Assembly: GCA_964613035.1 (NCBI GenBank) | Contig: CAZTFQ010000007.1 | Location: 8,409 to 72,408, forward strand | Origin: an uncultured Christensenellaceae bacterium | GTDB taxonomy: Bacteria; Bacillota; Clostridia; Christensenellales; DTU072 | DNA: 64,000 nt | Reading direction: 5' to 3' | Shown: positions 14,475-64,000 of the stretch, in pieces | Layout of the letters: each line of letters starts with the position of its first letter | Position numbering within the stretch: the first letter of the stretch is position 1 | Program-made: the position numbers and the translations under genes | The notes under the pieces: generated by a model | Seen by the model: the letters and a program-made list of their open reading frames with translations, nothing else | Told to the model about the DNA's origin: nothing | Database searches by the model: none

Positions 14475-14495
14475 CGATGAAAAAGAGGTGATTGA

Positions 14496-16497: not shown

Positions 16498-16553
16498 ACA
16501 ATACAATCGTAAAACACATTATAGAATACAACAAGCCAGAGAAGGAGAACGAT

Positions 16554-45824: not shown

Positions 45825-47668
45825 TGGAAGAACGCGATTATCGGCAACAACAGAACTCCGGCTTCGATATAGCCTCTTCGCTAGGAGTTAATACCGGAGA
45901 GCATAAGCAGGTGCAGAAAGCTAACAATTTCTTAGGTACTTTTAAGAAGCTCCTCGTGTATTTGCGCCCCGAGACGGGCGTCCTTATAGCAATGGTGCTA
46001 CTTGCCGCCGCGTCGGCGGTGTTTGCCATCTGGGTACCGGAAATCAATAAGAAAATAACCAATCATCTCGTGGACAGCATACAATATTTCCGCGACGTCG
46101 ATATGAGCTTCGTATTAGAGATAATTCTTACGGGCGGCGTGCTGTATTTTCTGTCCGCTCTGGCGCAACTGGTTGCGGCTATGCTGGCGGCGAGTATGTC
46201 TCAGCGCGTCGTAAGACGTATGCGTAACGATATCCGCGACAAGTACGACCGCGTTGCGCTCAAGTATTTCGACGGAACGGCGACCGGAGACAATCTGTCG
46301 AGAATAACCAATGACGTTGAATTGGTTTCCGTCACCCTTCAGGATACTATCAATCAGATAATATCGGGTTTCATGACGATAGTGGGAGTGCTGGTGATGA
46401 TGTTCCGCATGGACTGGGTTCTGGCGCTTATTACAGTCGCTACGGTCCCCGTCTACGCTCTGATAACGGCATTGATAGTCAAGCGTAGCGAAAAGGAGTT
46501 CGCCCGTCAGCAAAAGTATCTCGGGGAACTCAACGGTCATATAGAAGAAATGTACGCCGGACATACCGTCATCGCCCTGTACGATATGCACGACGAATCC
46601 AAGAAAAAATACGCCGATATCAACGGAAATCTGGAGAAAAGTACGAAAAAAGCCCAGTTTTTAGGCGGAACGGTCCTCCCCGCGATGAGATTCGTCAACA
46701 ACTTCAACTACGTCCTCATATGCGTCCTGGGGGCAATAAGAGCAGGACAAAACAAAATAACCGTCGGCGATATTCAGGCTTTTATATCGTATATCAAGCA
46801 GTTTTCTACGCCGATAGAAAACATCGCCAATATCTCCAATACTATCCAGACCGCGATTGCGGCTGCCGAGAGAGTTTTCGAGGTGCTGGAGCTGGAAGAA
46901 ATGATTCCCGACAAGGAAAATTCTCTCACCGTGGCAGGAGTGAAAGGCGACGTCGAAATGGAGCACGTCCGCTTCGGGTACGTGAAAGATTGCGAGCTTA
47001 TTACCGATATGAACATATCCGTCAAAAGCGGCGAGTCCGTAGCCATAGTAGGTCCTACCGGCGCGGGAAAAACGACTATCGTCAACCTTCTGATGCGCTT
47101 TTACGAAATAGACGGCGGCTCTATCAAGATAGACGGCACGGACATTAGAGAGTATTCGCGTAACGACCTCATGAGCCTGTACGGAATGGTTTTGCAGGAC
47201 ACCTGGCTATTCAACGGCACGGTTGCGGAAAACATCGCCTACGGCGCGGAAAACGCGACCAGAGAAGACGTCGAGAGAGCCGCGAAAGAAGCCTATGCTC
47301 ACAACTTCATTATGCAGATGGAGAATGGCTACGACACCGTTCTGACGGAAGACGCCACCAATATATCCGCAGGACAGAGACAACTTCTCACCATCGCCAG
47401 AGCCATTTTGAAGAATCCTAAGATCATCATTCTCGACGAGGCTACCTCCGCCGTCGATACCCGTACGGAAGTCTACGTCCAAAAAGCCATGCTCAAGATG
47501 ATGGAAGGCAGGACGTCCTTCGTCATCGCGCACCGCCTCTCCACGATAATAGGATCTAAGCAAATATTGGTGATGAAAGACGGCGACGTCGTCGAAGTAG
47601 GCAATCATTCCGAGTTGATGAAAAAAGACGGCTTTTATAAGACTCTCTACGAATCTCAATTCAATTAA
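45824..47668 (+). CDS. ABC exporter half (TMD+NBD), partner subunit
   Basis: SRITNDV, GPTGAGKTT, ISAGQRQLLTIARA, ILDEATS, IAHRLST; coupled by a TAATG overlap. Confidence 0.95.
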   Translation: MEERDYRQQQNSGFDIASSLGVNTGEHKQVQKANNFLGTFKKLLVYLRPETGVLIAMVLLAAASAVFAIWVPEINKKITNHLVDSIQYFRDVDMSFVLEIILTGGVLYFLSALAQLVAAMLAASMSQRVVRRMRNDIRDKYDRVALKYFDGTATGDNLSRITNDVELVSVTLQDTINQIISGFMTIVGVLVMMFRMDWVLALITVATVPVYALITALIVKRSEKEFARQQKYLGELNGHIEEMYAGHTVIALYDMHDESKKKYADINGNLEKSTKKAQFLGGTVLPAMRFVNNFNYVLICVLGAIRAGQNKITVGDIQAFISYIKQFSTPIENIANISNTIQTAIAAAERVFEVLELEEMIPDKENSLTVAGVKGDVEMEHVRFGYVKDCELITDMNISVKSGESVAIVGPTGAGKTTIVNLLMRFYEIDGGSIKIDGTDIREYSRNDLMSLYGMVLQDTWLFNGTVAENIAYGAENATREDVERAAKEAYAHNFIMQMENGYDTVLTEDATNISAGQRQLLTIARAILKNPKIIILDEATSAVDTRTEVYVQKAMLKMMEGRTSFVIAHRLSTIIGSKQILVMKDGDVVEVGNHSELMKKDGFYKTLYESQFN

Positions 47669-47705
47669 AGCGCAAAAACCTCAAAAAATCCGCAAAAATA
47701 AAAAG

Positions 47706-47734
47706 AAACACTCAGGAATGCCTGAGTGTTTTTT
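47706..47734 (+). terminator. Intrinsic terminator
   Basis: AAACACTCAGG-AATG-CCTGAGTGTTTTTT. Confidence 0.88.
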
Positions 47735-48193
47735 GACGAAACTAAGTTCGTCTGTTCTGCCATTTTCATGACAGAAACTAAGGGGGAAGGACAAATTATC
47801 TTCAGTATAGAGACTATTCCTTAAAATAAACTTAAAAACACCTCCCTCGTAAGAATTTAACGCAGAAGTTTTTCCGTTTTTCCGAGCTGTTTTCGGGTCT
47901 GGTTTTTACGGTGTCTATAACGTCCGTAAAATTGTAGGTTAAGATGATTCTATCGGGATAATAAAAATGCGGCACACAAGCACGCTTCCCACACTCACTA
48001 CGTAAACTTTATAGTTGCTTTTAGATACATAAAAAAACTAAAATTCTATTGAAAAGAAGCATTAACATGACGTATAAAAATTATGACATTCGCCGAAGAG
48101 ATTTTTATACATATAACGTTCGAGCCCCCTTGATTGGGCAAGACGTACGTGGCGTAATCCAAATATTTCCTAAATTATTCACAATTTTTAATA

Positions 48194-48222
48194 TTGATTT
48201 TACTAGCTTTGTCGGCTATAAT
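48194..48222 (+). promoter_or_regulatory. sigmaA promoter of the locus-2 AraC gene
   Basis: TTGATT (48194-48199), 17 nt, TATAAT (48217-48222). Confidence 0.65.
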
Positions 48223-48242
48223 TAAATAAAAAGAGATTGTTT

Positions 48243-49097
48243 ATGAGACCGTATGTCAGATTTGCCATGCACGATACAATTAACAAAAATTGGCATTTGT
48301 CACGTGCAATATGGGACTACGAAATCATCTATATAGCCGACGGCTCGATGATAGTAGAAGTCGAGAAAAACAAGTATGTCGCAAAACAAGGCGATATAAT
48401 CTTTTTGCGCCCCGACGTGCATCATATACTTAAGAGCGGCAGCGACTCCACTCAACAGCCTCACGTGCACTTCGATTTTTACGAGGACGACATGTCCCCT
48501 ATAATCCCCGTCTCGCTCAAGCCTAAGAAGAATATGACCCCGGAGGAAAAGAGATTCTTCCGCAACGACGATTTGGCTGCAATCGGAGCGGATTTTCCTA
48601 CGGTTATGTCTCTACACGACCACGTGACGGTCCGCAATCTTCTGTATAGGATAATCGATGAATTCCGATTAAAAATGCCCTATTCTCAATCATATATGCA
48701 GGCGCTCCTTCTTGAGATGATAGTTACTATTCAACGCAGCTATACGGCGTCCAAGCAAGGACTCAGCCGAGAGCATATTATCGCATTCGACAGAATTAAG
48801 AAATATATAAGAGACAACGTCGATCGCAATATATCGGTAGACGAGCTGGCAGGGCTTACTTTCCTAAGTAAGTATCATTTCATCAGAGTCTTCACTGCGC
48901 ACTTCGAAGCCACCCCTCATAAATATATAACCACGTTGAGAGTGGAGCGCGCTAAAGAACTATTGCTATACGACTCATTCCTTACGGTAGGGGACGTCGC
49001 CGCTAAAATGGACTTTGACTCTCAGCAGACCTTTTCCGCTTGGTTTAAGAAAAACACATCTTTATCGCCTCTCGATTATCGCCGATTGCACAAATAG
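48243..49097 (+). CDS. AraC-family regulator with N-terminal cupin sensor
   Basis: WDYEIIYI..G, LRPDVHH, HVHFD; C-terminal ISVDELA....SKYHF.R.F...F..TP..Y....RVERAKELL, VA.KM.F.S...FS..FKK....SP..YR. Confidence 0.95.
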   Translation: MRPYVRFAMHDTINKNWHLSRAIWDYEIIYIADGSMIVEVEKNKYVAKQGDIIFLRPDVHHILKSGSDSTQQPHVHFDFYEDDMSPIIPVSLKPKKNMTPEEKRFFRNDDLAAIGADFPTVMSLHDHVTVRNLLYRIIDEFRLKMPYSQSYMQALLLEMIVTIQRSYTASKQGLSREHIIAFDRIKKYIRDNVDRNISVDELAGLTFLSKYHFIRVFTAHFEATPHKYITTLRVERAKELLLYDSFLTVGDVAAKMDFDSQQTFSAWFKKNTSLSPLDYRRLHK

Positions 49098-49194
49098 CAA
49101 TTTTTACTAAAAAATAAAACAACTTTTAATATTCAATAATCCTCTCTAATTGTTTTAAACTAATCTTGAAGATTATACGGGAGGTTTTTTTGTT

Positions 49195-50844
49195 ATGAAA
49201 AAAGCATTTTCGATATTGCTATGCTTGATTTTGATTACATCGGCATGTCTTTGCATGGCGGCTTGCGTAGAGTCAGACCCAGAAGGCGTCACGACAATCA
49301 AAATGTCCGTCGTCTGGAACGGTCTCTCCTATATGGACCCCGACTCGGACGATAATCGCATCGCAGGTATTATGCAAGAGAAGACCGGGGTCAAACTCGA
49401 CGTCAAGTGGGTCAACGGCACGGAAAACGAGCAACTCGTCCGTATTTTTAGTACGGGTCGTAATATGCCCGACGTAATCATGGCTCCTTACTGGGGTGGC
49501 GGCGACGCTTGCAGCGACACTATAAGGAAGGCGGCTCGCGACGGACTCATCGTGCCTCTTGACGAGATGATAGCCGAGTACGCGCCCAATCTTGAAGGCG
49601 CCTACACAACGGGTGTAGCAACCAGCTTTATCGAAAATGAACTTTCCGCGGAAGAATTCGGCGGTAAAAAGTATATCATTCCTATGCATACGCCTAAGAA
49701 TACCGACGAATATCAGAATTGGGGTTATACCGTATATTGCCGTAAGGATATATTAGAAGCCCTCGACGTCGATCCCTCTTCGATTACTTCGTCCGAAGCC
49801 GTCTACGAGCTGGCTAAGAAGATTAAGGCGGGCAACTTCACCGATATCAACGGCAATTCCATTATCCCCGCGTCTTGCTGGGCCAACGGATACGGTGCGG
49901 AGTGCTATATGAATAGTTACAGAACGCACAATATAACCAACGTCGTAGACAAGGGCGATCATTATGAGTGGTCGGCAATGCAGGACAACGTGGAGGAAGA
50001 AGTCCTCTTTATGCAGAAGATGATATCCGAGGGACTCTTTGACAAGACGGCTTTCTCTCACAACGAGACGACTGCTCTATCCAAGCACGTGACAGGAGGA
50101 GTAGGGCTGACCGCAACTCAATATCCTTATATTAAGAAGAATCTTGAAAACACCCTCTACGCAACCAATCCCGAGATGGAGTACGTCCCCCTCGGACCGA
50201 TTCTCGACGCCAACGGCAACGCTTATATGCCTAATACCGTCTATGAAGAAGGCGGCTATTACGGATTTGCCGTGCTGATGGTATCTAAGGATTGCTCGGA
50301 AGAGAAGCTCGTCGCATTGATGAAATATCTCGACTATATCAATAGCGAAGAAGGTATGCTCCTTGCGTATCTGGGAGAAGAGGGAGTAGATTACTATGTA
50401 ACCGACGACGGCGAGTATCGTATGACGGATGAGTTTTTTGCCAACGAAGCTCTCGATCCCGATTACGCATACAATCAAGGTATAGACTCTTACTTCACGT
50501 TCGGCTGCTCCGGAGTGCCGTTCAATACTTTCGAGAGAGCTCGAGCCGAGACAGAAGACCTGACTTATAAGACGGTCAAAGAGATGTATCCCGTAGTGGA
50601 GAAGTCCGGCAGGCGCGCCAGCTCGTGGGACGACGACTTCGAAGATATCGATTATTTGCACGGCATACTCGAGACCATAGATTACTCGCTCACTATCCAG
50701 AGCGCATATTGTGCCTCAACGTCTACGGAAGCTCTAAAAAAACTCAACGATTATCGTAGCGCTATTCGGAGCAAAGGCTATCTCGACGCCTATCTCGGGT
50801 GGTTGTACGCTAAGATAAGCGCGTCCAACGATATACTCTTCTGA
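49195..50844 (+). CDS. Oligosaccharide ABC transporter substrate-binding lipoprotein (LplA-like)
   Basis: Lipobox MAAC. I.EKTGV, MPDVI, G.K.Y.IP, .RKDILE.L, Y..LGP, YL.YINSEEG..L..LG.EG.DY. Confidence 0.9.
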   Translation: MKKAFSILLCLILITSACLCMAACVESDPEGVTTIKMSVVWNGLSYMDPDSDDNRIAGIMQEKTGVKLDVKWVNGTENEQLVRIFSTGRNMPDVIMAPYWGGGDACSDTIRKAARDGLIVPLDEMIAEYAPNLEGAYTTGVATSFIENELSAEEFGGKKYIIPMHTPKNTDEYQNWGYTVYCRKDILEALDVDPSSITSSEAVYELAKKIKAGNFTDINGNSIIPASCWANGYGAECYMNSYRTHNITNVVDKGDHYEWSAMQDNVEEEVLFMQKMISEGLFDKTAFSHNETTALSKHVTGGVGLTATQYPYIKKNLENTLYATNPEMEYVPLGPILDANGNAYMPNTVYEEGGYYGFAVLMVSKDCSEEKLVALMKYLDYINSEEGMLLAYLGEEGVDYYVTDDGEYRMTDEFFANEALDPDYAYNQGIDSYFTFGCSGVPFNTFERARAETEDLTYKTVKEMYPVVEKSGRRASSWDDDFEDIDYLHGILETIDYSLTIQSAYCASTSTEALKKLNDYRSAIRSKGYLDAYLGWLYAKISASNDILF

Positions 50845-50846
50845 TT

Positions 50847-51812
50847 ATGATCAACGTAGGAAGAATTAAAAAGGCAGGAGTAATGCTCCGCCTGGAAAAC
50901 CTCGGCAGAAGCATAATGAAGTACAGACATCTGTATCTCTTCTTGTTGCCTGCCGTAGTGTGGTTCTTTGTGTTTTGTTATATCCCGATGGGCGGATTGG
51001 TACTGGTCTTCAAGGACTACTCGTTCTCCAAGGGCGTCCTCGGTTCCGAGTGGGAAGAGCCTTTGTTGAAAAACTTCGAGTTGTTCTTCAACATGCCCGA
51101 GCTCGGCACTATGGTGACCAATACCATATATATTGCGCTCATACGTCTGGCACTCTTCCCCGCTCCGATAATATTAGCGATAATGCTCAACGAGGTCAAG
51201 AATCCCGTCTTCAAGAAATTTATCCAGACGGTATCGTACTTTCCCTTTTTCATATCTTGGGTCATCGTCGCCTCGATGCTGGAGCAGTTGCTCACTCCGT
51301 ACGGTAGCGGAGGTCCTCTCTACCATATGTTGCAACTCTTCTCCGGTAGTAGCGAAATCAAATATTATATGGTGGACAAGCCGTACTTCTATCCGCTTGT
51401 CGTAGTAACCTATCTATGGAAGACGGTCGGATGGAACTCCATCGTATACCTCGCGTCCATATCCAATATAGATCCGACGCTCTTCGAAGCAGCCGAGATA
51501 GACGGTTGTAGCAGATTCAGAGTTATACGCAAAGTTATTTTGCCTCATTTAAAACCGACGATTATATTGCTATTCGTCATGGCTCTCGGCTCTATTATGT
51601 CGGCGGGATTCGAGCAGATATATTTTCTTCAGACTCCCTCCAACTACGACTATAGCAACGTACTCGACGTCTGGGTAGTCAAATACGGTCTGGAGCAAGG
51701 CAAGTATGCCCTTGCCGCCGTGGCGGGACTGTTCCAGGGACTGATAGGATTGATATTTATAGTAGTCGGCAATACGGTCGTCAAGAAGATCGGAGGTACG
51801 TCGCTATGGTAA
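50847..51812 (+). CDS. ABC permease (LplB/YteP-like)
   Basis: YIPM.G....FKDY, KK..QT.SY.P.FISWV.V, WK..GWNSI.YLA.I..ID..L.EAA.IDG. Confidence 0.93.
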   Translation: MINVGRIKKAGVMLRLENLGRSIMKYRHLYLFLLPAVVWFFVFCYIPMGGLVLVFKDYSFSKGVLGSEWEEPLLKNFELFFNMPELGTMVTNTIYIALIRLALFPAPIILAIMLNEVKNPVFKKFIQTVSYFPFFISWVIVASMLEQLLTPYGSGGPLYHMLQLFSGSSEIKYYMVDKPYFYPLVVVTYLWKTVGWNSIVYLASISNIDPTLFEAAEIDGCSRFRVIRKVILPHLKPTIILLFVMALGSIMSAGFEQIYFLQTPSNYDYSNVLDVWVVKYGLEQGKYALAAVAGLFQGLIGLIFIVVGNTVVKKIGGTSLW

Positions 51813-52735
51813 ATTCCCGAATTAAACCCAAAAGACTATTCAAGCCGTCGCTACCTAAAAAACGGACCTCTCCCGGGGAGAAAGTCTTTTCCGCAATCAA
51901 CGCTATCCTTTTGATAGGACTCGCAGTCACGATGATATATCCGATGTATTACATCATTATATTGTCCTTCAACGACGGCGCCGACGCGCTCAAAGGCGGT
52001 ATATGGCTCTTCCCGAGAGTGTTTACTCTCGATAATTACAAGACGGTCTTCGCCAACGAACAGCTATTGACGGCTTTCGGCATATCGGTAGCAAGGACAG
52101 TCATCGGCACTATCGTATCGGTAATATTGATAGCGATGATGGCGTATGCACTGGCAATCAAAGAGCTGCCGGGGAGAAAAACGTTCAACAAGTTTTTCTT
52201 CTTCACGACGATATTCTCCGGCGGAATGATCCCCATGATCAGCTTGCTCAACAAGCTGGACCTGTTGGATAATCCTCTGGTCTATATTTTGCCGGCAATA
52301 TACTCGTTTTATAATATGTTGCTTATGAGGACGTCTTTCGAAGCCACCCCGAAAGCATTGAGAGAAGCCGCTCTTATGGACGGCGTCAGCGAATGGAAAA
52401 TATTCTTTAAGGTGTATATGCCGCTCAACAAGCCCGTCATCGCAACTGTCGCGCTTTTTACGGCGGTTTTCCATTGGAACGACTGGTTTGCAGGTAGCTA
52501 CTATATCTCTACCGACTGGATGAAACCTGCCGCGACTATCCTTCAAGAGATGCTTCAAGAAGCACTCGGCAACTTGAACAATGCCAGTGCCACTGGCGGC
52601 GCAGCAGTGACAACCACCGCGCAGACTCTCCAGATGGCTTTCGTCGTGGTTATTACCTTCCCGATAATGGTCGTGTATCCCTTTTTGCAGAAGTATTTTA
52701 CAAAAGGCGCCGTTGTAGGCTCCATCAAAGAATAA
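51806..52735 (+). CDS. ABC permease (LplC/YtcP-like)
   Basis: YP.YYI...SF, FSGG.IP, EAA..DG....IF..V..PL.KP, WNDWF, VYPFLQKYF.KG..VGSIK. Confidence 0.93.
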   Translation: MVNSRIKPKRLFKPSLPKKRTSPGEKVFSAINAILLIGLAVTMIYPMYYIIILSFNDGADALKGGIWLFPRVFTLDNYKTVFANEQLLTAFGISVARTVIGTIVSVILIAMMAYALAIKELPGRKTFNKFFFFTTIFSGGMIPMISLLNKLDLLDNPLVYILPAIYSFYNMLLMRTSFEATPKALREAALMDGVSEWKIFFKVYMPLNKPVIATVALFTAVFHWNDWFAGSYYISTDWMKPAATILQEMLQEALGNLNNASATGGAAVTTTAQTLQMAFVVVITFPIMVVYPFLQKYFTKGAVVGSIKE

Positions 52736-52767
52736 CAATCAACCTTAGAAAAAACAAGGAGGTTTTT

Positions 52768-55077
52768 ATGAAAACAAAAAGAGCTGGTAGAATCAAAAAG
52801 AGTTTGATTTCGCTATTGCTTATCTCGATGTTGGTCGTCCCTATATTCGGATGCGACGGCGATCCCGATCGGGGCTCATCGGAAGATAAGGTGCAGTTGA
52901 CGGAGAAAAACGATATGCTCGTATTGAACAACGACTCCGTATCGCTGTCGTTCATGAAGGACAACGGGTCTCTCGTCTCTATCAAGAATGCCTCTTCCGG
53001 TACGGACTATATAGAGGACTCCGAGGGCGGCAATTGGGCGTTGTCTATAGATTTATCTACCGACGATTGCTTCGAGTCTAACCCCACCGGCGCTAATACG
53101 GTCCTCGTCAGCAGCCGTACGCAAAGTATGACTTATAGTAAGACCGATCTCTCCGACGGCATTGCGCTGACTTTCGATTACGCCGTATCCTTCACTTCCG
53201 ACTCGGTTACTTACACGGGCATTACGGTCAAAGAGACCGTTACTCTCAAGAAGGGCGCCTCCGATGCGAGTTTTGCTTACGAAATAACCAACGGCGTCTC
53301 GGGCTCGGTCATAACGACCTTCACGGGAGCCCAAATCTCCGGTTTGAAGAACGACAACGGCGACTATAATCTCTTCTGGCCTTATAAAGAGGGCAAAATA
53401 TACGAGAATGCAGTCAAAACCGTCAAGACCGCCAAGGACGACACCGCCAGAATGGTAGCGGAGTATCCATCTCCCATGTCGATGCAATTGGTACAGCTCT
53501 ACAACGACAAAGAGGCGTTGTATTACTACGTGCCCGACGCGACCAGAGAGTATAAAGAATTCAACTTCGGCGCGTTCATCAACAAGGGACAATATGACTT
53601 CCAAGGAGTGCAGGTGGCGGATAAAGTATCCCTGTCTTGCAGCAGATATCCTTTCATCGAGCCGAATGAAACCAAGTCGGTAGAAGCGGTCATCGGCGTG
53701 TCCGCGCACGGCGATTGGTACGACGGCAGTGACAGATACAGACAATTTTTGATCGATTCCGGCATGACCAGAGCCTCCAATTCTCTTACGGAAGAGTGGA
53801 CGGGATTCTCGGTGCTGATCGGTACTCAATACGGCGATAAGCAATTCGCCGCATATGCTCAGGCGGAAGGCTTCGAAGATACTTACACCAATTGGGCAGA
53901 GAAGACCAATCAATACGGCGTGACAACCACGACTCTTATCGGTTGGCACGCGGGCGGATTCGATTCGATGTATCCCGATTATGAGTTCCAGACCGGGACC
54001 GGATTCGGCGAGGACAACTTCAAGCTGGCTATGGAGCAAGGTCACGCCAACGGCAATACTTTCCTTGCGTACATCAACGCGCATATAGCGGATAAAGAAT
54101 CCAAGTGGAGCAATACCGTTTACAACGCGGCAACGGGCATAACCAATATGGAACAAGCCGCTATCAAGACTAAAGGATTTTCTTCTACTACGGGAAAAGA
54201 CGATTATGTCAATTATATGATGAGAGAGTCTTACGGCACGGGTACTTATTACTATGCCATGTGTCCCGATTCCGAGCTCTTCCGAGACGCTATTTTATCC
54301 GCGGTCGGCAGACTTAGAAAAAACGGCGTCGACGGAATATGGTTCGATCAGTTAATGGAAATGCCTGCCAATCTGTGCTACGACGCCTCACACGGTCACG
54401 AGACGCCCGCTACCGCTTACGGTGAGGGTTACGGGGAACTTTTCGCAGAACTCGAGCGCGTTATGTCTTCCGTATCCGGCGCGTATATGTTCGCCGCGGA
54501 AGGCGTATGCGACGCCTGGATAGAATATGTCGACGTGTGCGGTTATATGTGGTCCAGAAAACTGGGCGCAAGAGATACCGACGGTAAGAATATGTCTCCC
54601 GAGCTTACTCGTTACACAATGCCCGCAACTTTCTTAGGAATAGAGGGCGCAGGGACGACTTCGGGCGATTCGGACGAGTTTGCAAGAGCGTTCGTAATGT
54701 CCGATCCTTTCCTTGCCGATCCCTATAAGCCGTCTGTCGGCAGCCTTACGAGCGTATATGCGCAAGATTCCACTTATCTGACCGGTAGATACGTCGATAC
54801 GTTGGGAGCTATTTCCGACGACGAGTATCTCATATTCGGTCAGACGCTATCATCGGACGGCAAGAAGATTGCGCTCACAGTCTACAACTACAACGACGAG
54901 GCTTCTTCCGGCGCGACGATTAAGCTGGATCTCGATAGGCTCGGACTCGGCGACTGCAAGATAGACTCCGCTATAGAGATGTTCACGGGAGACAAAGTCT
55001 CTTACAGCGGTAGCGTCATTAATCTCCCCGATATAGAAGAACTAGGCATCACGTCAATCCTCATCACACTCAAATAA
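52768..55077 (+). CDS. Uncharacterised lipoprotein, putative glycoside hydrolase (N-terminal beta-sandwich plus TIM barrel, DUF6259-like)
   Basis: Lipobox IFGC. Barrel-like motifs GWH.GG.D..YP.Y, AYIN, MCP, G.DG.W.DQ, AEG..D suggest a GH-like acid pair. Family assignment is from recollection only. Confidence 0.55.
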   Translation: MKTKRAGRIKKSLISLLLISMLVVPIFGCDGDPDRGSSEDKVQLTEKNDMLVLNNDSVSLSFMKDNGSLVSIKNASSGTDYIEDSEGGNWALSIDLSTDDCFESNPTGANTVLVSSRTQSMTYSKTDLSDGIALTFDYAVSFTSDSVTYTGITVKETVTLKKGASDASFAYEITNGVSGSVITTFTGAQISGLKNDNGDYNLFWPYKEGKIYENAVKTVKTAKDDTARMVAEYPSPMSMQLVQLYNDKEALYYYVPDATREYKEFNFGAFINKGQYDFQGVQVADKVSLSCSRYPFIEPNETKSVEAVIGVSAHGDWYDGSDRYRQFLIDSGMTRASNSLTEEWTGFSVLIGTQYGDKQFAAYAQAEGFEDTYTNWAEKTNQYGVTTTTLIGWHAGGFDSMYPDYEFQTGTGFGEDNFKLAMEQGHANGNTFLAYINAHIADKESKWSNTVYNAATGITNMEQAAIKTKGFSSTTGKDDYVNYMMRESYGTGTYYYAMCPDSELFRDAILSAVGRLRKNGVDGIWFDQLMEMPANLCYDASHGHETPATAYGEGYGELFAELERVMSSVSGAYMFAAEGVCDAWIEYVDVCGYMWSRKLGARDTDGKNMSPELTRYTMPATFLGIEGAGTTSGDSDEFARAFVMSDPFLADPYKPSVGSLTSVYAQDSTYLTGRYVDTLGAISDDEYLIFGQTLSSDGKKIALTVYNYNDEASSGATIKLDLDRLGLGDCKIDSAIEMFTGDKVSYSGSVINLPDIEELGITSILITLK

Positions 55078-55103
55078 CATTATTCGTATAAGGACTACAG
55101 TTT

Positions 55104-56129
55104 ATGAAATTCGATTTTAATTATCATCGCATACAATCTCGCGCAATCACCGCCGAAAACTTCCACGGAGATAAGGGCATGGGCGGCATGGCTACTGAAG
55201 GTATGGGAAAAATCCCTGCCGGAGATTTGGGCAAGACCTTCAAAATATCTCCCTGTATGCTCGTGCCTAAGCAGACCGACTTCGTTATGTGCGACATCAA
55301 AGGCAGCGGAGAAGTCAACCATATATGGATGACCTGCGCTCCGGAAGCTTATTCGGCGATTATAGAGTTTTATTACGACTGCGCGCAAGTACCTTCGGTC
55401 AGCCTGCCTATCGCTAAGCTCTTCGCTATAGGGTTTGACCGTAAGTCTATAGTCAACTCCCTAATGATCACCGTTAACCCCGCAGGCGGAATGAATCTCT
55501 ATTGGCCGATACCCTTCCGCAAAGGACTCAGAGTCGTGCTCAAGAACGTCACCGACAGCGATATCGTCATTTATTACCAATTCGATTATCAGCTCAAGCG
55601 TATTCCGCGCTCTACTTGCTATTTCCATGCCTTCTACAACGAGTCGTTGCCTCTAGAGGCTAAGAAGAACCATATGCTCCTCAATAAGATAGAGGGCAGA
55701 GGCACGTATTGCGGAACATTCATGACTTTCAAAACCGACTTCACTACCTGGTGGGGCGAGGGCGAAGTCAAGTTTTTCATCGACGGAGACAAAGATTATC
55801 CGACGATATGCGGTACGGGTACGGAGGACTACTTCGGCGGCGCGTGGAATTTCGAGCAACCGCTGGGTACCTACAGAAGCTATTCTACGGCGTATCAAGG
55901 ACTCGTCGACGTCATCCCCGAGGACAAAATATACGTCACGGATCAGAAGTTTTCTATGTATCGATGGCATATATCCGACCCCGTATATTTTGCCAAAGAT
56001 CTGCGAGTCGAGATACAGGCAATAGGTTGGGAAGAAGGTTTACTGCACTATCGTGCGCTGTCTCCCGAGATAACTTCCGTCGCCTACGTCTACCTCGACA
56101 AAATAACCAACGTAAAAAATAAAAAATAA
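55104..56129 (+). CDS. GH172 / DUF2961 glycoside hydrolase (alpha-D-arabinofuranosidase / alpha-D-fructofuranosidase family), cytoplasmic
   Basis: AENF.G.KG.GG, G.G...HIWMT, N..W..PF, YFHA, G.G.Y.G, WWGEGE.KF.IDG, GTGTEDYF.GAW, YRWHI.DP..F..DLRV.IQ. No signal peptide. Confidence 0.88.
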   Translation: MKFDFNYHRIQSRAITAENFHGDKGMGGMATEGMGKIPAGDLGKTFKISPCMLVPKQTDFVMCDIKGSGEVNHIWMTCAPEAYSAIIEFYYDCAQVPSVSLPIAKLFAIGFDRKSIVNSLMITVNPAGGMNLYWPIPFRKGLRVVLKNVTDSDIVIYYQFDYQLKRIPRSTCYFHAFYNESLPLEAKKNHMLLNKIEGRGTYCGTFMTFKTDFTTWWGEGEVKFFIDGDKDYPTICGTGTEDYFGGAWNFEQPLGTYRSYSTAYQGLVDVIPEDKIYVTDQKFSMYRWHISDPVYFAKDLRVEIQAIGWEEGLLHYRALSPEITSVAYVYLDKITNVKNKK

Positions 56130-56149
56130 ACAATTTGGAGGAAACAAAA

Positions 56150-58678
56150 ATGAAAAAATTAACCTATGTGTTGATTATCGCATTGTTGATTGTTTCGCTT
56201 ACCGCTCTAATCGCCTGCGACGACGAAGAAATCCCGTCGGGGACTCCTTCCGGCAGCGAATTAGAAGTGTCCGAGCGTACGATCAACGTGACCGTACTCG
56301 ACGGTTCTGCGGCTGTGTCGGGAGCAGGGGTCTATATCCGCTCGACCGATTACTCCGCGACAACCGACGCCTCGGGTAAATGTCAATTGGTTTTATCTGC
56401 TGACGACTCCTCCGCCGATTATTATTCTCTCATCGTCAAGAAGACCGATTACCTCGATGCCGGTTACAAAGTCAATGCTTCGGACTTTAGCGACAACGTA
56501 GCAGACGTCACCGTCTCTATCTATACCGAGGACATCGTTATATCGGGTTCCGTCTCATGCGGAGACGTCGCTTTACAAGACGTACTCGTATCGGTATCTT
56601 CGGACGACGCGACCGCTATAACGGATAAAGACGGCAACTACTCGCTCGTCATCCCTCGTCCCATAGAGAGCTTCTCGATAACTTTCTCCAAGTCTCTATA
56701 TGCCGATTATAGCTTAGAGATCACCGACCTTGAAAAATCTCTCTACACCGTCAATGCGGTTCTTAGCGAGAATTCCTTCAACGTAGAAGGTACCGTCGCT
56801 CATTACTTCAACGGTGCAATCGACGGCGCTACCGTCAAAGTCGTCGGCACCGATACATCCGTGACGACCGATAGCGAGGGCAACTTCTCTATATCCGATA
56901 TCAAGGGGCTCGATCTTCCTTATCGACTTGCAGTTACCAAGACCGGTAGTCAGACCGCAATCGTCAAGGTGGAAGAAGCCGACGCCGAGCTGGAGATAGA
57001 GCTCGTCGACGATCCCGTCAAACTCGGCATCCTCTCCCCCAGCAACAAGAATTACTCAATGTCCGTCGTGCGCGACTCCAAAGGTATATGGTTTTATTTC
57101 GACAGCGCGTTCCAATTTGTCGATGGCGATAAACTGTGCATCTACATCGACGTCAACGAAACGGGCACCGTCTCCGTAGGCAGCAGCGTACTGGAGTTTG
57201 CCCTGTGCGGGGACTGCGATGCCGAAGGCAATCCTATCGCACTTGTTTGGAATCTTAAAACAAGCCAATCGGTAACCGAAACTGCCGAAATCGAATGGGG
57301 TAAAGAAGTTATTTACAACCTATATAACACAGAAGAAGGGTCGTATATAGAGGCATTCATCTCTTATGACGTCTTCGCCAAAGCCGGCGCTGACTTCGCT
57401 ATCGACTACAAGTCCGTAGTGGGCATATCCTTCTTCGACCGTGGTTCAAACAGTTCCGGTGCCGTGGGCTGGGACAGCGCGGACTTCCCCGGAGCCGACG
57501 GTGCCAATTGGGTACATCCCGACAGACCTTACGACTTCGTCCGTCTCGCTCCCGAGAACGTCATCTACGAAGCCGCCGACAATACCTACGTACCTTATAT
57601 CGACTATAACGTCGTCATTAACGTCCAAGACGAGGAAGGTAACGCCATTAACGGAGCCTCCGTCAATATGGTCTATCCTTACGAGATTTCCAAGATAGCA
57701 GAAGAAGGCGAAGTCGCTTTCGTCCTCAACGGAAAATATTTCAATAAGGAGCCTCGCTTCACCGCTATTGCGGAAGGATATGCAATGGCATCCGTAACGA
57801 TCGCCAGAACGGAATTCGTCGACGGCTCGACGGTAGTCGACATAACGCTCAAAGAAAACGACGTCATCCTTAGCGGCACGGGAAAAGTATCATCTTTGTC
57901 GGGCGCTCTTCAGGGAGTATCCGTATCCGTAGAGGGCTATGAAGGCTCCGTGCTTACCGACGCCGACGGCTCTTATGACATTTCTACTCTCAATATCGAC
58001 GCTAAGGGATTATCTTCTTATCAACTCGTTTTCAGTAAAGACGGTTACGACAACAAGACCCTTAACGTCACCATCGGCATGGAAATAGACGACGTCACGA
58101 TGCTTGCCGAGGCTCGCAATCTGGGGACTTTCGGAAATTATGGTTGGAACGTCACCATAGATCGTAGCGAAACCAAGCTCATCGTTGATCTCGTCAGTGC
58201 TCATAACTGGTACGGAAAGACCGATCTGGACGGCAATACTACTTTTAGCGAGAACGAACTTCAGATATATTTCGTCACCGATCTTACCGCTAAATCGAAA
58301 ACCGCCGACGGATTAAGAGAACTCACGATAGTAGAAAAGGTTTCTCAAGGCGGTACCGACTGGGCAGGCTGGAGAGACGGTAGCAGAAGCTTCCTCACCT
58401 GGCCCGGAATTACCTATAGCGTATACAACGGTGACGACGGATGTAAGGTCCATGTAGAAGTTGCGTACAGCCTTCTCGGAATAGATAAGGGTGACACCGT
58501 AGGTCTGGCTCTCGGCGAGTGGTACGGTCAGGAGACGGCTAAGTGGTCTTGTCCTTTCTATACCAGCGGTACGCAGACTTTCGTAACCTCGGGCTGGGCA
58601 GTTAACGTCAATGATCCTTCCACGTCCCTTCACTGGGCGGCAGATAACTCCACCAAGGTAGTATACGTCGCAGAATAA
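56150..58678 (+). CDS. Non-catalytic-looking surface lipoprotein with repeated carboxypeptidase-regulatory-like (Ig/TTR-like) and DOMON-like domains
   Basis: ATG 56150, lipobox LIAC. Repeated (V/I).G.V......(L/V).GA.V......TD..G.(Y/F).(I/L) units; two sugar-binding-like domains (YIEAFISY..., VEVAYSLLG). Confidence 0.7.
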
Positions 58679-58688
58679 AATCAATCTA

Positions 58689-58720
58689 ATTTCTCCCGCG
58701 GAGCGATTCGCGGGAGAAAT
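58689..58720. other. Strong intergenic stem-loop without downstream U-tract
   Basis: ATTTCTCCCGCG-GAGCGATT-CGCGGGAGAAAT: perfect 12-bp stem just upstream of the ABC ATPase gene. Confidence 0.72.
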
Positions 58721-58739
58721 ATCAACGGAGATAATTTTC

Positions 58740-60359
58740 ATGACCGAAGAAAACAGAATAAAGAAGATCGAACTGAAGAAGAACGAAAAAATTCATCTAG
58801 AGATGATAGAAAATCAACTTCTCAACAGAAGATTGGTTAAGATCGCCCCCGAGGACGTCTGCATATCGTTCAAGAATATCAACAAGATATACCCCAATCA
58901 TAAGCAGGCGGTATTTGATTTCGATTTGGACATAAAAGAGAAAGAATTCATCGTATTCGTAGGTCCGTCGGGTTGCGGCAAGTCTACGACTCTCAGAATG
59001 CTCGCGGGATTAGAGGATATCACGTACGGAGACCTCTTCATCGACGGCAAGTACGCCAACGACCTTATGCCCAAGGAGCGCGACGTCGCGATGGTCTTCC
59101 AAAACTACGCCCTCTATCCCAATATGAGCGTCTATGACAATATGGCTTTCTCCCTACAAGCGAGGAAGTATGACAAAAAGGAGATAGATAAAAGGGTAAG
59201 GCACGCCGCGAAGATCTTAGAGATAGAAGAATATCTCGACGTCAAGCCTGCCAATCTGTCGGGCGGTCAGAGACAAAGAGTCGCGCTCGGAAGAGCGATT
59301 GTTCGTAATGCTAAAGTTTTTCTTATGGACGAGCCTCTCAGCAATCTTGACGCCAAGTTGAGAGTACAGATGCGTAGCGAGATAGTCAAACTTCACAACC
59401 AAGTGGGAGCCACTACGGTGTACGTCACTCACGACCAGACCGAGGCAATGACCATGGCGACCAGGATAGTGGTAATGAAAGGCGGATATGTCCAACAGAT
59501 AGGCACGCCCAAAGATATCTACAACAATCCTTCCAACGTTTTCGTCGCTAAGTTTATCGGTTCGCCCGCAATGAACGTACTCGACTGCGTCATAGAAGAC
59601 GGCTCTATAGTCTTGCCCAACGGTCTTATTATACCCCTCACTGAGGCAAGACTCTCCGCTATCAAGGACTTCTATATCGACGAAATCGACTCTACGGAGA
59701 AGAATATCGCCGCACTGGAGCAGGAAATAGAGGATCGCGAATACGAGCTCACTCACCCCGATTACGTTAGAGCCGCAATTGCCTTCGACAAAAAACGTAA
59801 CAAAATATCTTCCGAGATAGCCAAGTTGAGTGAAAAAATTAAAAAAGCCAAGCGCTCGTTTAAGGGCGACGACGTCATAGCGCCTCTTCAAGAGTCGTTG
59901 AGCCGTAAGAATGCAGAGTATGCGACATTCGTCGAGGAGCAAGAGGCTCTCCTTAAGTCGACGGAGTATAAGGAAGTCGTTCCGCGTAATTACGACAAGA
60001 TTCGAAACACCGACGATTATCTCAATATCTATCGTCAGGACTTAGAGAAACTCCGCGCCGACCTCAAGTATTACAAGTCGTGTGCGGCAGGAGAAAACAC
60101 CGCCTATCTATTCGGTATCCGCCCGGAAGAAATCTACTTCGACAACGATTCGGACGGATTGTCGGAGGAGTTTTCCGCCGATATTACCGTGGCGGAATTA
60201 TTGGGACACGAGTACTTCATCCACTTCAACGTAGGAGATACCGACGTTACCGCCAAGCTCAATACCGAGGAACTCGTCGCGGGACAGACGATCGGGCTGA
60301 AGCTAGACCTCAAATATCTGCATATATTTGACAAACATAGCGAAAAACGCATTTTTTAG
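58740..60359 (+). CDS. Sugar ABC transporter ATPase (MsmK/MalK-like) with ~150-aa helical insertion
   Basis: [83 protein letters not shown]. Confidence 0.93.
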
Positions 60360-60372
60360 ATAAAGGTGTAAT

Positions 60373-60957
60373 ATGTACAAAGATTTACTTCAAGACATAA
60401 TGATAAAAGAGCGTGACTCCGTCAATGCGCTCATCGAGTCGACTAACACTCAATACGACGAGGTCATAGAGACTTTGCTTAACTGCAAGGGCAAGGTAGT
60501 ATTCTTCGGAATCGGCAAGAGCGGTCATATCGGAGAGAAACTCGCCGCGACGTTTTCCAGTACTGGCACACCGTCTATATTCGTCCACGCGGCAGAGGCT
60601 CGTCACGGGGACTTCGGGATGATAGAGGCTCGCGACGTCGTCATATTGATGTCTCATAGCGGTACGACTTCAGAGACGGTCTCCGCCGTCGATACCCTCA
60701 AGACGATAGGCTGTAAGACGATAGCTTTTTGCCGAGACGGAGACACGACTTTGGCTAACCGATGCGATCTCCGTATAGGATATCCTTTCGGACAAGAGGC
60801 AGATCCTATGGGGGTTGCGCCCAGCAGCAGCACGACCGTGCAGTTGGTGCTAGGCGACGCGATAGGATTGACGCTGTCCTCTCTCAAGGGCTTCACCAGA
60901 GCGGATTTCGGCAAATTCCATCCGGGCGGAACTTTAGGGAAAATGCTCAATAAATAG
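60373..60957 (+). CDS. SIS-only D-arabinose-5-phosphate isomerase (KpsF/GutQ family, no CBS domains)
   Basis: G.GKSGHIG.K.AAT.SSTGTPS.F.H..EA.HGD.G, SHSG.T.E, AP.SSTT..L..GDA, DF..FHPGG.LG; the protein ends where the CBS pair would begin. Confidence 0.88.
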   Translation: MYKDLLQDIMIKERDSVNALIESTNTQYDEVIETLLNCKGKVVFFGIGKSGHIGEKLAATFSSTGTPSIFVHAAEARHGDFGMIEARDVVILMSHSGTTSETVSAVDTLKTIGCKTIAFCRDGDTTLANRCDLRIGYPFGQEADPMGVAPSSSTTVQLVLGDAIGLTLSSLKGFTRADFGKFHPGGTLGKMLNK

Positions 60958-61023
60958 TATTTGAGTTTTGGGTAACCGTATCGTATAATTAAGTAGACTA
61001 AACAAGGATTTTAGGAGAAAAAG

Positions 61024-61917
61024 ATGAGTATACTCGTAGTGGGAAGTTTCGTGACGGATCTGGTAGCGACCACCGACAGAGCCCCGGAGGCGGGCGAATC
61101 CGTCAGAGGCAATTCTTTCAACATATATCAAGGAGGCAAAGGCATCAATCAAGCCGTTGCGGCTAAGCGTATGGGTGCCGACGTTATTATGGCAGGGTGT
61201 CTGGGCAACGACTCCTTCGGCGATGACTTCATCAAGACAATCGAGGCAGAGGGGATGTCTACCGAGTATATCAAGAGATCGGATTCGGCTACCGGGTGCA
61301 GTCTGATAGTATTGGATAAAAACGGGCAGAATCGTATCTGTATGACTCCGGGAGCCAACCTCGACTATGCTACGGAAGACTTATACGGTATCGAGAGTCT
61401 GATAGAAGATGCCGACGTCGTCGTTACGCAATGCGAGATGATTCCCGAGATTGTCGATGAATTAGCCGCACTGTGCTCTAAGCACAATAAGAAGTTCATT
61501 CTCAATCCGGCTCCCGCAAGAGCTTTGAGCGACGAGGTGATCTCCGCTACTTACGTTATTTCTCCCAACGAGACCGAGCTGGGAGTGATTATCGGTAGGA
61601 CGCTAGTCAGCGACGAGGATTATATATCGGGTGCTCGAGAGTTGCTCGATAGAGGCGCCGACAACGTCGTCGTAACTCTCGGGAGCAGAGGAAGTCTTCT
61701 CGTCAATAAAGACGTCGTCGAGATAGTCCCGGCTAAGAAAGTCAAAGCCGTAGACACGGTAGGCGCGGGAGATTCTTTCACAGGGTCTCTGGCTGCCTTC
61801 ATAGCAGAAGGCAAAGATGTTTTGTCCGCGATGAAACTCAGTACTGCAGTAGCCGGACTGCAAGTCACTCGTCGCGGAGCCATTCCATCTATGCCGTATA
61901 GAAAGGAGATAGAATAA
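61024..61917 (+). CDS. Ribokinase-family pentose kinase (candidate D-arabinose kinase)
   Basis: GSFVTD, GGKGINQAVAA, GND.FG, LNPAPA, PNETE, VTLGSRG, VDTVGAGDSF. Confidence 0.88.
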   Translation: MSILVVGSFVTDLVATTDRAPEAGESVRGNSFNIYQGGKGINQAVAAKRMGADVIMAGCLGNDSFGDDFIKTIEAEGMSTEYIKRSDSATGCSLIVLDKNGQNRICMTPGANLDYATEDLYGIESLIEDADVVVTQCEMIPEIVDELAALCSKHNKKFILNPAPARALSDEVISATYVISPNETELGVIIGRTLVSDEDYISGARELLDRGADNVVVTLGSRGSLLVNKDVVEIVPAKKVKAVDTVGAGDSFTGSLAAFIAEGKDVLSAMKLSTAVAGLQVTRRGAIPSMPYRKEIE

Positions 61918-61930
61918 GGAGTTATTACTA

Positions 61931-63688
61931 ATGAAAAAGTCATTAAAAATATTTATGATTACCGTAGGAATAATCGTTTTGTTGCTATGCTTGATTATTG
62001 CAGGTTGCGACGAAAAACACACTCATAGTTACGTTATTTTTTCGACTTATAAAGAGGCTTCTTGTACGGAAGAGGGCGAGACGCGAGTATATTGCGAATG
62101 CGGCGAGTATATTTCCGAGACCATATCGGCTCCGGGGCATGACTACGGAGAGTGGACTACGATAGAAGAAGCCACCGTTACCGATGACGGGAAAAAACAA
62201 CGCGAGTGTTCTCGTTGTTATGATATAGATGAGCGGATTATCCCTGCCACAGGTGTATCGGTATCCGCATATCCGTCGGTCTACGTGTCCTTCGACAATC
62301 CGGACAACAACGGCAACTTCTATGACTGTATTTCAGGCGACGCTATCTACAATCACTTGGGCGTATCCGAAGCGGAAGGTCGGTCGTCAAAAGGCGCTGT
62401 CTTCGACGGCACCGATTATTTGGAGATAAGTGCGGCTGCTCCGACGAGCAATTCCGCCTATACGGTCTCTTGCTGGATCAAGATCGATACGACGTCTCTA
62501 GAGACCGGTCGAGAGTACGTGATAGTAGGCTGGGGCGACGCTACTTCCAATCAAGGAACTGCGTTGACTGTCAAAAACAATCGTCTCTACGCAACCTTCT
62601 TGACTAATAGACCGGTATGCGATCTGCCTTCTGACTGCGCAACGGTCTGGCATCACGTCGCACTGACTTACGACGGCGCTACGCATAAATTGTACCTCGA
62701 CGGCGACGAAAAGTCTTCTCTCACTCTTACCAACGGTATGGAAATAAGCGAGTCTCCTATATATGTCGGCGGATTGGACGGAGAAAAGAATTATTGCGGA
62801 AAAATAGACGAGCTGATGATATTCAACTCGGTAATAAACAACGAGGAGATAGTATATTATATGGATAATATAGGCAACTTAAGACTAAGCAATCCCACCA
62901 ACGACATCCCCGTTTCGGACGGGAAAAAACAATTCGACGTCAACGGAACGTACATCACCAACGGCTGGAATAGGTTCTATTACGAGTACAACGGCACAGA
63001 GCTCGGCGTAGCCGTACATTTGCCCAGGAATTACGACCCCTATAAAACCTATCCGCTGCTTATATCGCTGCACGGCGACGGATATCTTAACAAGACCCTC
63101 GATCAGATAATGACCTGCGGTGATAATAACTTTGCAAAAAGCGCCATGTCTCTAGGCGAAGATTGCATAATCGTCATGCCAAACGCAGGGACGGAAGTTT
63201 GGCTCTATGTACCCGATATTAAGCAATATGTAGACAATCAATATCTTTCTAGAAGTTACGATATGTCGACAGCTGTCCCCAGTGCTGAATTGAATGCGGT
63301 CGACAATCTCATAGACGTACTTATCGCCAACTACCCCGTCGATAGAGATAGAGTCTATCTCGCGGGATATAGCAGAGGTTGTATGGCGTCTTTTTATCTG
63401 ATGAATAAGAATCCCGAGCGTTTTTCCGCGGCAGTGCTTTGCTGCGGAGCGGGCGATTCCTCTATAATGCCCGACTTGGCATCCATACCGCTTTGGTTCT
63501 ATTGCGGAGACCAAGACAACCTCGTATACTACAATGACTTCAAAAAACTCTACGACATATACGTAGAAGCAGGTGGTCAGGGACACTTCACAACCTGCCC
63601 CGGCGGCGACCACGGAGCCCCCGCTAGCTACGTCAACAACAATACGGAACTTATCGAGTGGGTCTTCTCACAGAAGAAATCTTCTTAA
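61931..63688 (+). CDS. Lipoprotein: His/Cys surface repeat, LamG/ConA-like domain and alpha/beta-hydrolase (esterase) domain
   Basis: Lipobox IAGC. H.HSY....ASCTEEG...C.CG repeat; YTVSCWIK...WHHVALTYDG..LYLDG...IDELMIFN (LamG). Esterase motifs PLLISLHG.G, D.DRVYL.GYSRG, GDQD, GGDH. Confidence 0.85.
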   Translation: MKKSLKIFMITVGIIVLLLCLIIAGCDEKHTHSYVIFSTYKEASCTEEGETRVYCECGEYISETISAPGHDYGEWTTIEEATVTDDGKKQRECSRCYDIDERIIPATGVSVSAYPSVYVSFDNPDNNGNFYDCISGDAIYNHLGVSEAEGRSSKGAVFDGTDYLEISAAAPTSNSAYTVSCWIKIDTTSLETGREYVIVGWGDATSNQGTALTVKNNRLYATFLTNRPVCDLPSDCATVWHHVALTYDGATHKLYLDGDEKSSLTLTNGMEISESPIYVGGLDGEKNYCGKIDELMIFNSVINNEEIVYYMDNIGNLRLSNPTNDIPVSDGKKQFDVNGTYITNGWNRFYYEYNGTELGVAVHLPRNYDPYKTYPLLISLHGDGYLNKTLDQIMTCGDNNFAKSAMSLGEDCIIVMPNAGTEVWLYVPDIKQYVDNQYLSRSYDMSTAVPSAELNAVDNLIDVLIANYPVDRDRVYLAGYSRGCMASFYLMNKNPERFSAAVLCCGAGDSSIMPDLASIPLWFYCGDQDNLVYYNDFKKLYDIYVEAGGQGHFTTCPGGDHGAPASYVNNNTELIEWVFSQKKSS

Positions 63689-64000
63689 ATTCCAACCGTA
63701 CGACATTGTACGTACTATGCGCGGTTAGGATTACTTGTATTGTTAGCCTGTGACGGATATTCACGGTCCGACTCTGCTAAAAAGGATGTCATCCCGATAT
63801 CATTTTTGTTGTATAAACACAAAAGTGCCCAAAATAGCATTTTTCGTATATAAAAATTAGCTTAACGAATGACTCGAAAACTACATAAATCCATCTAACA
63901 AAATACGCACCTCAAAATAGTGATTTATCTATGATAGCAGGGTATATATTCTAACATTCTCTTCCGTCGAACTTGAACTCGTCGATATATGACGGTTTCC

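Follow-up and report, generated by a model that had tools for sequence, protein, structure and literature searches.

Why does a bacterium that appears to be monoderm carry an arabinose-5-phosphate isomerase (API), and what does the ribokinase-like gene beside it do? Both questions are raised by a gene pair in a 64,000-nt stretch of DNA from an uncultured Christensenellaceae bacterium (GenBank assembly GCA_964613035.1, contig CAZTFQ010000007.1, positions 8,409 to 72,408; the whole stretch is hereafter called the window):

60373..60957, + strand: predicted CBS-less (SIS-only) API, 194 aa; SIS domain only, corresponding to the N-terminal half of KdsD/KpsF
61024..61917, + strand: PfkB ribokinase-family kinase, candidate D-arabinose 5-kinase, 297 aa; TIGR02152 312.9 bits

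APIs are textbook enzymes of lipopolysaccharide (LPS) and capsule synthesis, and we know of no physiological explanation so far for their presence in bacteria without 3-deoxy-D-manno-octulosonic acid (Kdo). We propose, with a probability of about 80%, that the SIS-kinase pair forms the cytoplasmic end of a D-arabinofuranoside utilisation operon, in which D-arabinose would be converted to D-arabinose 5-phosphate (A5P) and then to D-ribulose 5-phosphate (Ru5P). This route, already suggested in the initial annotation of the pair, is now backed by an operon containing a glycoside hydrolase of family GH172, by 22 recurrent loci and by a substitution that marks the kinase clade. The two genes lie on a common strand with a spacing of 66 nt, are separated from their neighbours by 13 nt upstream of the SIS gene and 13 nt downstream of the kinase gene, and are preceded by Shine-Dalgarno-like sites (AAGGTG and AGGAG, respectively); the spacing suggests that the pair is co-transcribed with its neighbours.

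In an attempt to find a biosynthetic sink for A5P, the genome, which is small and of a gut-type member of the Clostridia (1.65 Mb in 32 contigs, 93% complete), was searched, and no match was found for the Kdo 8-phosphate (KDO8P) synthase KdsA, for KdsB or for LpxC. The window also carries a SpoVT homologue, which fits a spore-forming Firmicute. Both results agree with the earlier statement of a monoderm-looking organism without Kdo or LPS genes nearby. A ribulose-phosphate 3-epimerase (rpe) is present in the genome. A5P made here is without a known biosynthetic use, whereas Ru5P has an obvious fate.

Sequence analysis of the 194-aa protein found a single Pfam SIS domain (PF01380, 89.7 bits, residues 36-164) and no Pfam CBS domain, as expected from its description as an SIS-only protein of the KpsF/GutQ type, and the translation of its open reading frame (ORF) ends in ...FHPGGTLGKMLNK. 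Among the NCBIfam models, KdsD (NF008141) was matched with 188 bits, residues 7-192 falling on positions 17-202 of 328, while the KpsF/GutQ model TIGR00393 was matched with 174.6 bits, residues 40-192 falling on positions 1-153 of 268. The latter score lies below the curated cut-off of 203.7 bits; because the CBS half is missing and only positions 1-153 can be matched, this shortfall reflects the architecture of the protein and not divergence of its SIS domain. The best relative of solved structure was 5UQI/5VHU, a 198-aa "phosphosugar isomerase" (197 bits), followed by the SIS domain of E. coli KdsD (2XHZ, 138 bits), B. fragilis 3ETN (110 bits) and Listeria 3FXA (95 bits), and the model of HxlB, the 6-phospho-3-hexuloisomerase, gave only 36 bits.

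Alignment to 2XHZ and 5UQI placed K49, H78, E101, E142 and H183 opposite K59, H88, E111, E152 and H193 of KdsD (a constant offset of +10), which we take from the KdsD literature to be its catalytic residues; 2XHZ is the structure of a K59A mutant, and its Ala lies exactly opposite K49. Across 24 SIS-only homologues with 51-81% identity, K49, H78, E142 and H183 were invariant and E101 was at least 90% conserved. The Listeria protein 3FXA, reportedly a glucose-6-phosphate isomerase, carries Thr instead of both this Lys and the HGD-motif Asp; as the window protein keeps both residues, it falls on the API side of the divide. From its sequence, the 194-aa protein is predicted to represent only the isomerase half of an API, the regulatory CBS pair being absent.

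Such CBS-less APIs are known from E. coli (5UQI/5VHU), C. tetani (CtAPI) and B. fragilis (3ETN), all of which, like the window protein, have a single SIS domain of about 195-220 aa and the catalytic residues of KdsD, and the window protein is a further member of this group. The E. coli protein, which we take to be c3406 of strain CFT073, a characterised API, is encoded next to the metV tRNA genes together with a phosphotransferase system (PTS) EIIC component, a MalY/PatB-type enzyme and a dehydrogenase. This island has a PTS and no kinase, whereas in the window the API gene stands next to that of a PfkB kinase, at the end of the GH172 operon. What the Gram-positive API does physiologically was reportedly left open by those who described the C. 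tetani enzyme in 2017. Its identification as a CBS-less API is given here from a secondary source (Cech et al. 2017, as cited in PMC11301363).

The neighbouring gene, described earlier as ribokinase-like, does encode a PfkB protein (225.8 bits, Pfam) that matched the NCBIfam ribokinase model TIGR02152 with 312.9 bits (cut-off 299.65), and its best solved relatives are true ribokinases, E. coli RbsK (1RKD) being matched with 174.9 bits. RbsK and the window kinase have in common the PfkB fold, the polar sugar ligands D16, G42, K43, N46 and E143, and the catalytic D255, all of which are kept in SIS-linked kinases and in other kinases alike; in the numbering of the window kinase, D12, K39, N42 and E138 are kept and D250 corresponds to the catalytic D255. 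Because the sugar ligands of RbsK and D255 are kept, the window kinase should phosphorylate O5 of a pentofuranose. It differs from RbsK in lacking the rbsD/rbsACB context, in being SIS-linked and in several positions of the sugar pocket, namely V10 for N14, S93 for A98 and V246 for I251 (T in Clostridia), while I100 is retained as I95.

To place these differences, a quick maximum-likelihood tree was calculated for 49 kinases, comprising 17 SIS-linked, 11 rbs-operon (including E. coli RbsK) and 20 other kinases and an outgroup; kinases beside RbsD, RbsA or RbsB in a class sample of 300 genomes numbered 10. All 17 SIS-linked kinases fell on one side of a single branch, with a Shimodaira-Hasegawa-like approximate likelihood ratio test (SH-aLRT) value of 89, apart from the 31 rbs-linked or other ribokinases. 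The columns that discriminate most between the two sets line the sugar pocket. At RbsK position 98, Gly or Ser was found in 19 of 22 SIS-linked kinases and Ala in 31 of 32 others; Asn at position 14 occurred in 0/17 versus 21/31, and Val or Pro at position 100 in 10/17 versus 3/31, whereas position 251 is Val in 12/17 SIS-linked kinases and Thr in 30/31 others. Asn14 was considered as a sole marker of ribose kinases and rejected, given that human ribokinase has Met there and 10 of the 31 comparison kinases lack Asn.

Position 98 has been probed in E. coli RbsK, where the A98G replacement raised kcat for D-arabinose 15-fold and lowered ribose activity (Zayats et al., PMC9604405). In the model of that enzyme, the 2′-OH of D-arabinose faces the lid residues A98, I100 and I110, and the hydrogen bond of N14 is lost with arabinose (PMC9604405). 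Clade membership and the polar replacement at position 98 argue for the window kinase as a candidate with a preference for D-arabinose and, taken together with the gene context, as a candidate for the orphan activity EC 2.7.1.54.

The adjacency of the two genes is not peculiar to the window. A pattern scan with one genome per species, in which genes were identified by ORF calling and BLASTP, yielded 80 loci: 62 carry a long (≥317 aa) KdsD-type gene, with a PfkB kinase in none of these 20-kb loci, and 18 carry an SIS-only gene, with a PfkB kinase directly adjacent in 14. SIS-kinase pairs were found in Clostridia, Erysipelotrichaceae, Clostridium pascui, Virgibacillus ndiopensis, Paenibacillus brevis, Enterococcus florum, Tetragenococcus muriaticus and the actinobacterium Actinotalea caeni, and in one Lachnospiraceae genome (locus L016) the two are fused into a single 513-aa protein. 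In total, 22 distinct pairs were obtained from the genome scan, metagenome contigs and the 300-genome class sample. The pair is nonetheless rare, as SIS-only homologues (E ≤ 1e-30) occurred in only 5 of the 300 class genomes.

In the window, the pair ends a run of genes on one strand (48237-61917), in the order regulator, binding protein, two permeases, DUF6259, GH172, lipoprotein, ATPase, SIS protein and kinase. The genes upstream of the pair are as follows, with ABC standing for ATP-binding cassette:

48237..49097, + strand: AraC-family regulator, first gene of the cluster; HTH_18/HTH_AraC and AraC_binding/cupin domains
49195..52735, + strand: ABC importer, 549-aa solute-binding protein (SBP_bac_1) and two permeases (two BPD_transp_1)
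52768..55077, + strand: DUF6259 lipoprotein, 769 aa; PF19773 94 bits, lipobox-like N-terminus in the translation
55104..56129, + strand: cytoplasmic GH172 (DUF2961) protein, probable exo-alpha-D-arabinofuranosidase; match to 8IC8
56135..58678, + strand: lipoprotein with CarboxypepD_reg-like domains, 847 aa; PF13715/PF13620
58740..60359, + strand: MalK/MsmK/UgpC-type ABC ATPase with a long insertion, 539 aa; ABC_tran, OB_MalK and TOBE_2, NCBIfam UgpC/MalK

The GH172 protein matched PDB 8IC8, the exo-alpha-D-arabinofuranosidase ExoMA1 of Microbacterium arabinogalactanolyticum, with 321 bits (E 7e-95) over residues 8-336, and the difructose-dianhydride enzyme DFA-I synthase 7V1V with only 99.5 bits; no signal peptide is visible in its translation. 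It is an orthologue of ExoMA1 and, by this similarity, would release D-arabinose. Mycobacterial arabinogalactan and lipoarabinomannan are known substrates from which GH172 enzymes free D-arabinose (PMC10115798, PMC10509167), and the match to an exo-alpha-D-arabinofuranosidase gives the operon a plausible cytoplasmic source of free D-arabinose. The order from binding protein to kinase is kept in two relatives, loci L132 and L133, in which the SIS protein has 81% and 74% identity to that of the window and the cluster stops after the kinase. The 847-aa lipoprotein, which shows 50-63% identity to its counterparts in both loci, probably binds glycan, and the DUF6259 lipoprotein is a possible candidate for a surface glycanase.

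Based on these findings, the pathway would proceed as follows. The ABC system would import D-arabinofuranoside oligosaccharides of the D-arabinan type, from which GH172 would free D-arabinose in the cytoplasm. The PfkB kinase would then phosphorylate D-arabinofuranose at O5 to give A5P (EC 2.7.1.54), the CBS-less SIS enzyme, working in the catabolic direction, would convert A5P to Ru5P (EC 5.3.1.13), and Ru5P would enter the pentose phosphate pathway through the ribulose-phosphate epimerase of the genome. Gene content and order, conservation, catalytic residues, recurrence of the pair and the signature of the kinase clade are observed; from them we infer the substrate specificities of both enzymes and the identity of the natural glycan. 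The initial annotation had further called this a shorter route, which stands in comparison with the fucose-enzyme route of E. coli K-12 and does not stand in general, since an isomerase together with a D-ribulokinase also reaches Ru5P in two steps.

The genes that travel with the pair elsewhere point to the same sugar. GH183 (DUF4185, endo-D-arabinanase) and/or GH172 lie within the cluster in 12 of the 22 SIS-kinase loci (the window, L009/L015, L012, L014, L017, L020, L024, L025, L074, L132, L133 and L135), one of which has a transketolase gene between the SIS and kinase genes, while DUF4185 is otherwise nearly absent from the class, with three weak matches in 300 genomes. Two further loci combine the pair with an aldolase of the family that unites N-acetylneuraminate lyase (NAL) and dihydrodipicolinate synthase (DHDPS): L016:8570-13763, where the pair is fused, has a BNR_2 sialidase-like gene and a major facilitator superfamily (MFS) transporter, and L018:7146-11532 has a tripartite ATP-independent periplasmic (TRAP; DctQ/DctM) transporter. 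In these loci the aldolase may split a Kdo-type ulosonic acid into pyruvate and D-arabinose, and it would then be a candidate for the orphan Kdo aldolase EC 4.1.2.23. In L019, L023 and L137, the pair is accompanied by ribose-type ABC transporters, or by RbsD/FucU and an MFS permease.

SIS-only loci served by a PTS (L011, L022, L029 and the E. coli island L095) have no adjacent kinase, which is expected if the kinase serves only sugars that enter the cell unphosphorylated; the SIS-only enzymes of these loci may receive an already phosphorylated A5P precursor. Among them, the Lactobacillales loci carry EIIC-GAT together with aldolases of the DHDPS type and of the 2-keto-3-deoxy-6-phosphogluconate (KDPG) type, and an Erysipelotrichaceae locus carries a PTS EIIC and MalY/PatB-type partners as in the E. 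coli metV island.

Taken together, we lean towards the view that the SIS-linked PfkB clade, with Gly or Ser at position 98, is the missing D-arabinokinase (EC 2.7.1.54) family, and that with the CBS-less isomerase it makes up a portable two-gene cassette placed, in Firmicutes and some Actinobacteria, behind varied front ends that produce D-arabinose, such as GH183/GH172, DUF6259/GH172 or a NAL-type aldolase that would be the orphan Kdo aldolase (EC 4.1.2.23). What is new here is probably a ribokinase-family clade specialised for D-arabinose and coupled to a CBS-less API as a catabolic cassette. Separately, one Clostridia genome (G258) holds two pairs, one (L135) by a GH172 gene with Ser at position 98 of the kinase, the other (L137) behind an RbsBAC-like ABC transporter with Gly at this position.

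Of the alternatives, the one that survives best, though unlikely, holds that the kinase is an ordinary D-ribose kinase, that is a second rbsK, beside an A5P isomerase with some other role, for example one in which A5P acts as a regulatory molecule. The score of 312.9 bits against the ribokinase equivalog, the retention of all polar ribose ligands and of the catalytic Asp, and true ribokinases as the closest solved relatives speak for such an enzyme, but the window already encodes a ribokinase of the ribose type:

16554..17414, + strand: second, ribose-type ribokinase paralogue, outside the module; TIGR02152 295.9 bits

In this paralogue, N, A and I occupy the places of RbsK residues 14, 98 and 100, and in the tree it grouped with the rbs-operon kinases, apart from the SIS-linked kinases with their Gly or Ser at position 98. 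Furthermore, adjacency to an SIS gene recurs in 22 loci, with one fusion, RbsD was not found in the genome, and the glycosidase of the operon is predicted to free D-arabinose, not ribose.

A quite improbable alternative is that the SIS protein is another sugar-phosphate isomerase and that GH172 releases some other furanose for the pair to process, such as a product derived from D-fructofuranosides or another pentose. SIS-only look-alikes can indeed differ in activity, as the Listeria protein 3FXA presumably does; the window protein, however, scored 197 bits to 5UQI and 138 to KdsD compared with 95 to 3FXA, keeps the Lys and Asp missing in the latter, and has only a 36-bit match to HxlB. Likewise, alpha-D-fructofuranosides are substrates of some members of GH172 (PMC8605356; 7V1V), whereas the GH172 protein of the operon resembles the D-arabinofuranosidase far more closely than the DFA-I enzyme, and GH183 endo-D-arabinanases accompany the pair in other loci. 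An anabolic pair, in which Ru5P is turned into A5P for a D-arabinose- or Kdo-like envelope sugar while the kinase salvages free sugar, would agree with the textbook role of KdsD/KpsF. It is highly improbable, however: neither KdsA nor KdsB nor LpxC was found in the genome, the operon is headed by an AraC regulator and encodes an importer and glycosidases instead of glycosyltransferases, and the recurrent partners are catabolic (GH183, GH172, aldolase and transketolase).

Several observations weigh against D-arabinose catabolism through the pair as proposed above. The window kinase lies just above the equivalog cut-off for ribokinases (312.9 versus 299.65 bits), it has Ser at position 98 and not the Gly that was tested in E. 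coli (PMC9604405), and three SIS-linked kinases keep Ala at this position. The kinase tree came from a quick search with SH-aLRT support only, and its SIS-linked members were chosen by label from several phyla, while the comparison kinases came from one class. In the 93%-complete genome, GH183 (PF13810, DUF4185) gave no match, and 54 of the 300 class genomes carry GH172, mostly without an SIS protein; GH172 presence was accordingly rejected as a predictor of the module, the SIS-only protein being found in 5/300. The genome also carries, on contig C5 (L101:7217-11138), a separate operon of fucI, an FGGY kinase and a class II aldolase, that is fucI-fucK-fucA, the classical route for L-fucose that in enterics takes D-arabinose too. 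Because of this operon, the SIS-kinase module is not the sole possible route for D-arabinose, and the idea of a genome without an alternative was rejected on finding it.

The two reactions have a precedent in biochemistry. Propionibacterium pentosaceum is reported to possess a D-arabinokinase and a phosphoarabinoisomerase, described by Volk around 1960-62 from biochemistry only, with the same reactions in the same order as proposed for the window pair. To our knowledge, no sequence family has been defined for EC 2.7.1.54. This activity and Kdo aldolase (EC 4.1.2.23) were among the validated orphan activities in a 2007 survey (PMC1940265), and in the literature searched we found neither a later gene assignment for EC 2.7.1.54 nor a gene-level description of the D-arabinokinase/phosphoarabinoisomerase route.

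The window locus also resembles the D-arabinan loci of Microbacterium arabinogalactanolyticum (PMC10509167) and Dysgonomonas gadei (PUL42; PMC10115798) in combining a GH172 exo-alpha-D-arabinofuranosidase with an importer. Unlike D-arabinan loci with GH183, GH172 and GH116, it contains neither GH183 nor GH116 and has DUF6259 instead. The downstream enzymes of the two loci are said to yield Ru5P (PMC10509167, PMC10115798). In D. gadei, a fucose-type isomerase ranked highest in abundance among the carbohydrate-active enzymes on D-arabinan (PMC10115798). For Microbacterium, the available portions of text and supplements refer to "a putative isomerase and kinase" without naming their families (PMC10509167); as the related Actinotalea locus L074 holds the SIS-kinase pair, the Microbacterium locus may, by analogy, contain one as well.

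If the proposed route is true, the pair would explain why an "LPS-type" API is kept by Gram-positive bacteria that lack an outer membrane, and it would link an activity that has been known since the 1960s and was still an orphan in 2007 to a gene and, with position 98, to a simple marker in the sequence. It would also complete the downstream half of Gram-positive utilisation loci for D-arabinan of mycobacterial and corynebacterial cell walls, for which published work covers the glycosidases only. In addition, E. coli ribokinase needed engineering for the enzymatic synthesis of arabinoside drugs (PMC9604405), and natural kinases that are efficient with D-arabinose would be useful in this synthesis.

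Some minor features of the region were also noted. The gene directly downstream of the kinase has no counterpart after the kinase in L132 or L133 and thus probably lies outside the conserved operon:

61931..63688, + strand: lipoprotein with LamG and esterase domains, downstream neighbour; Laminin_G_3 and Esterase families

The DUF6259 lipoprotein occupies the place held by GH183 endo-arabinanases in related loci and adjoins GH172 in L132 and L133 too. In the 539-aa ATPase, about 150 residues between OB_MalK and TOBE_2 (about 305 to 459) have no Pfam match, and this long form is kept in both relatives. Within the 66-nt gap between the SIS and kinase genes, a promoter-like site was seen at 60961..60989 (TTGAGT, a 17-nt spacer and TATAAT). 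A consensus scan of 47600..64000 gave 29 promoter-like and 15 terminator-like sites, compared with 22.7 and 15.2 in shuffled sequence, which is chance level; the site was rejected as evidence, since such sites occur across the region at the frequency of shuffled sequence. Finally, the ribose-type paralogue is preceded, within 13752..17414, by an ABC ATPase and three ORFs without a Pfam match (14496..16497), which together may form a so far overlooked transport system for ribose or for a sugar derived from nucleosides.

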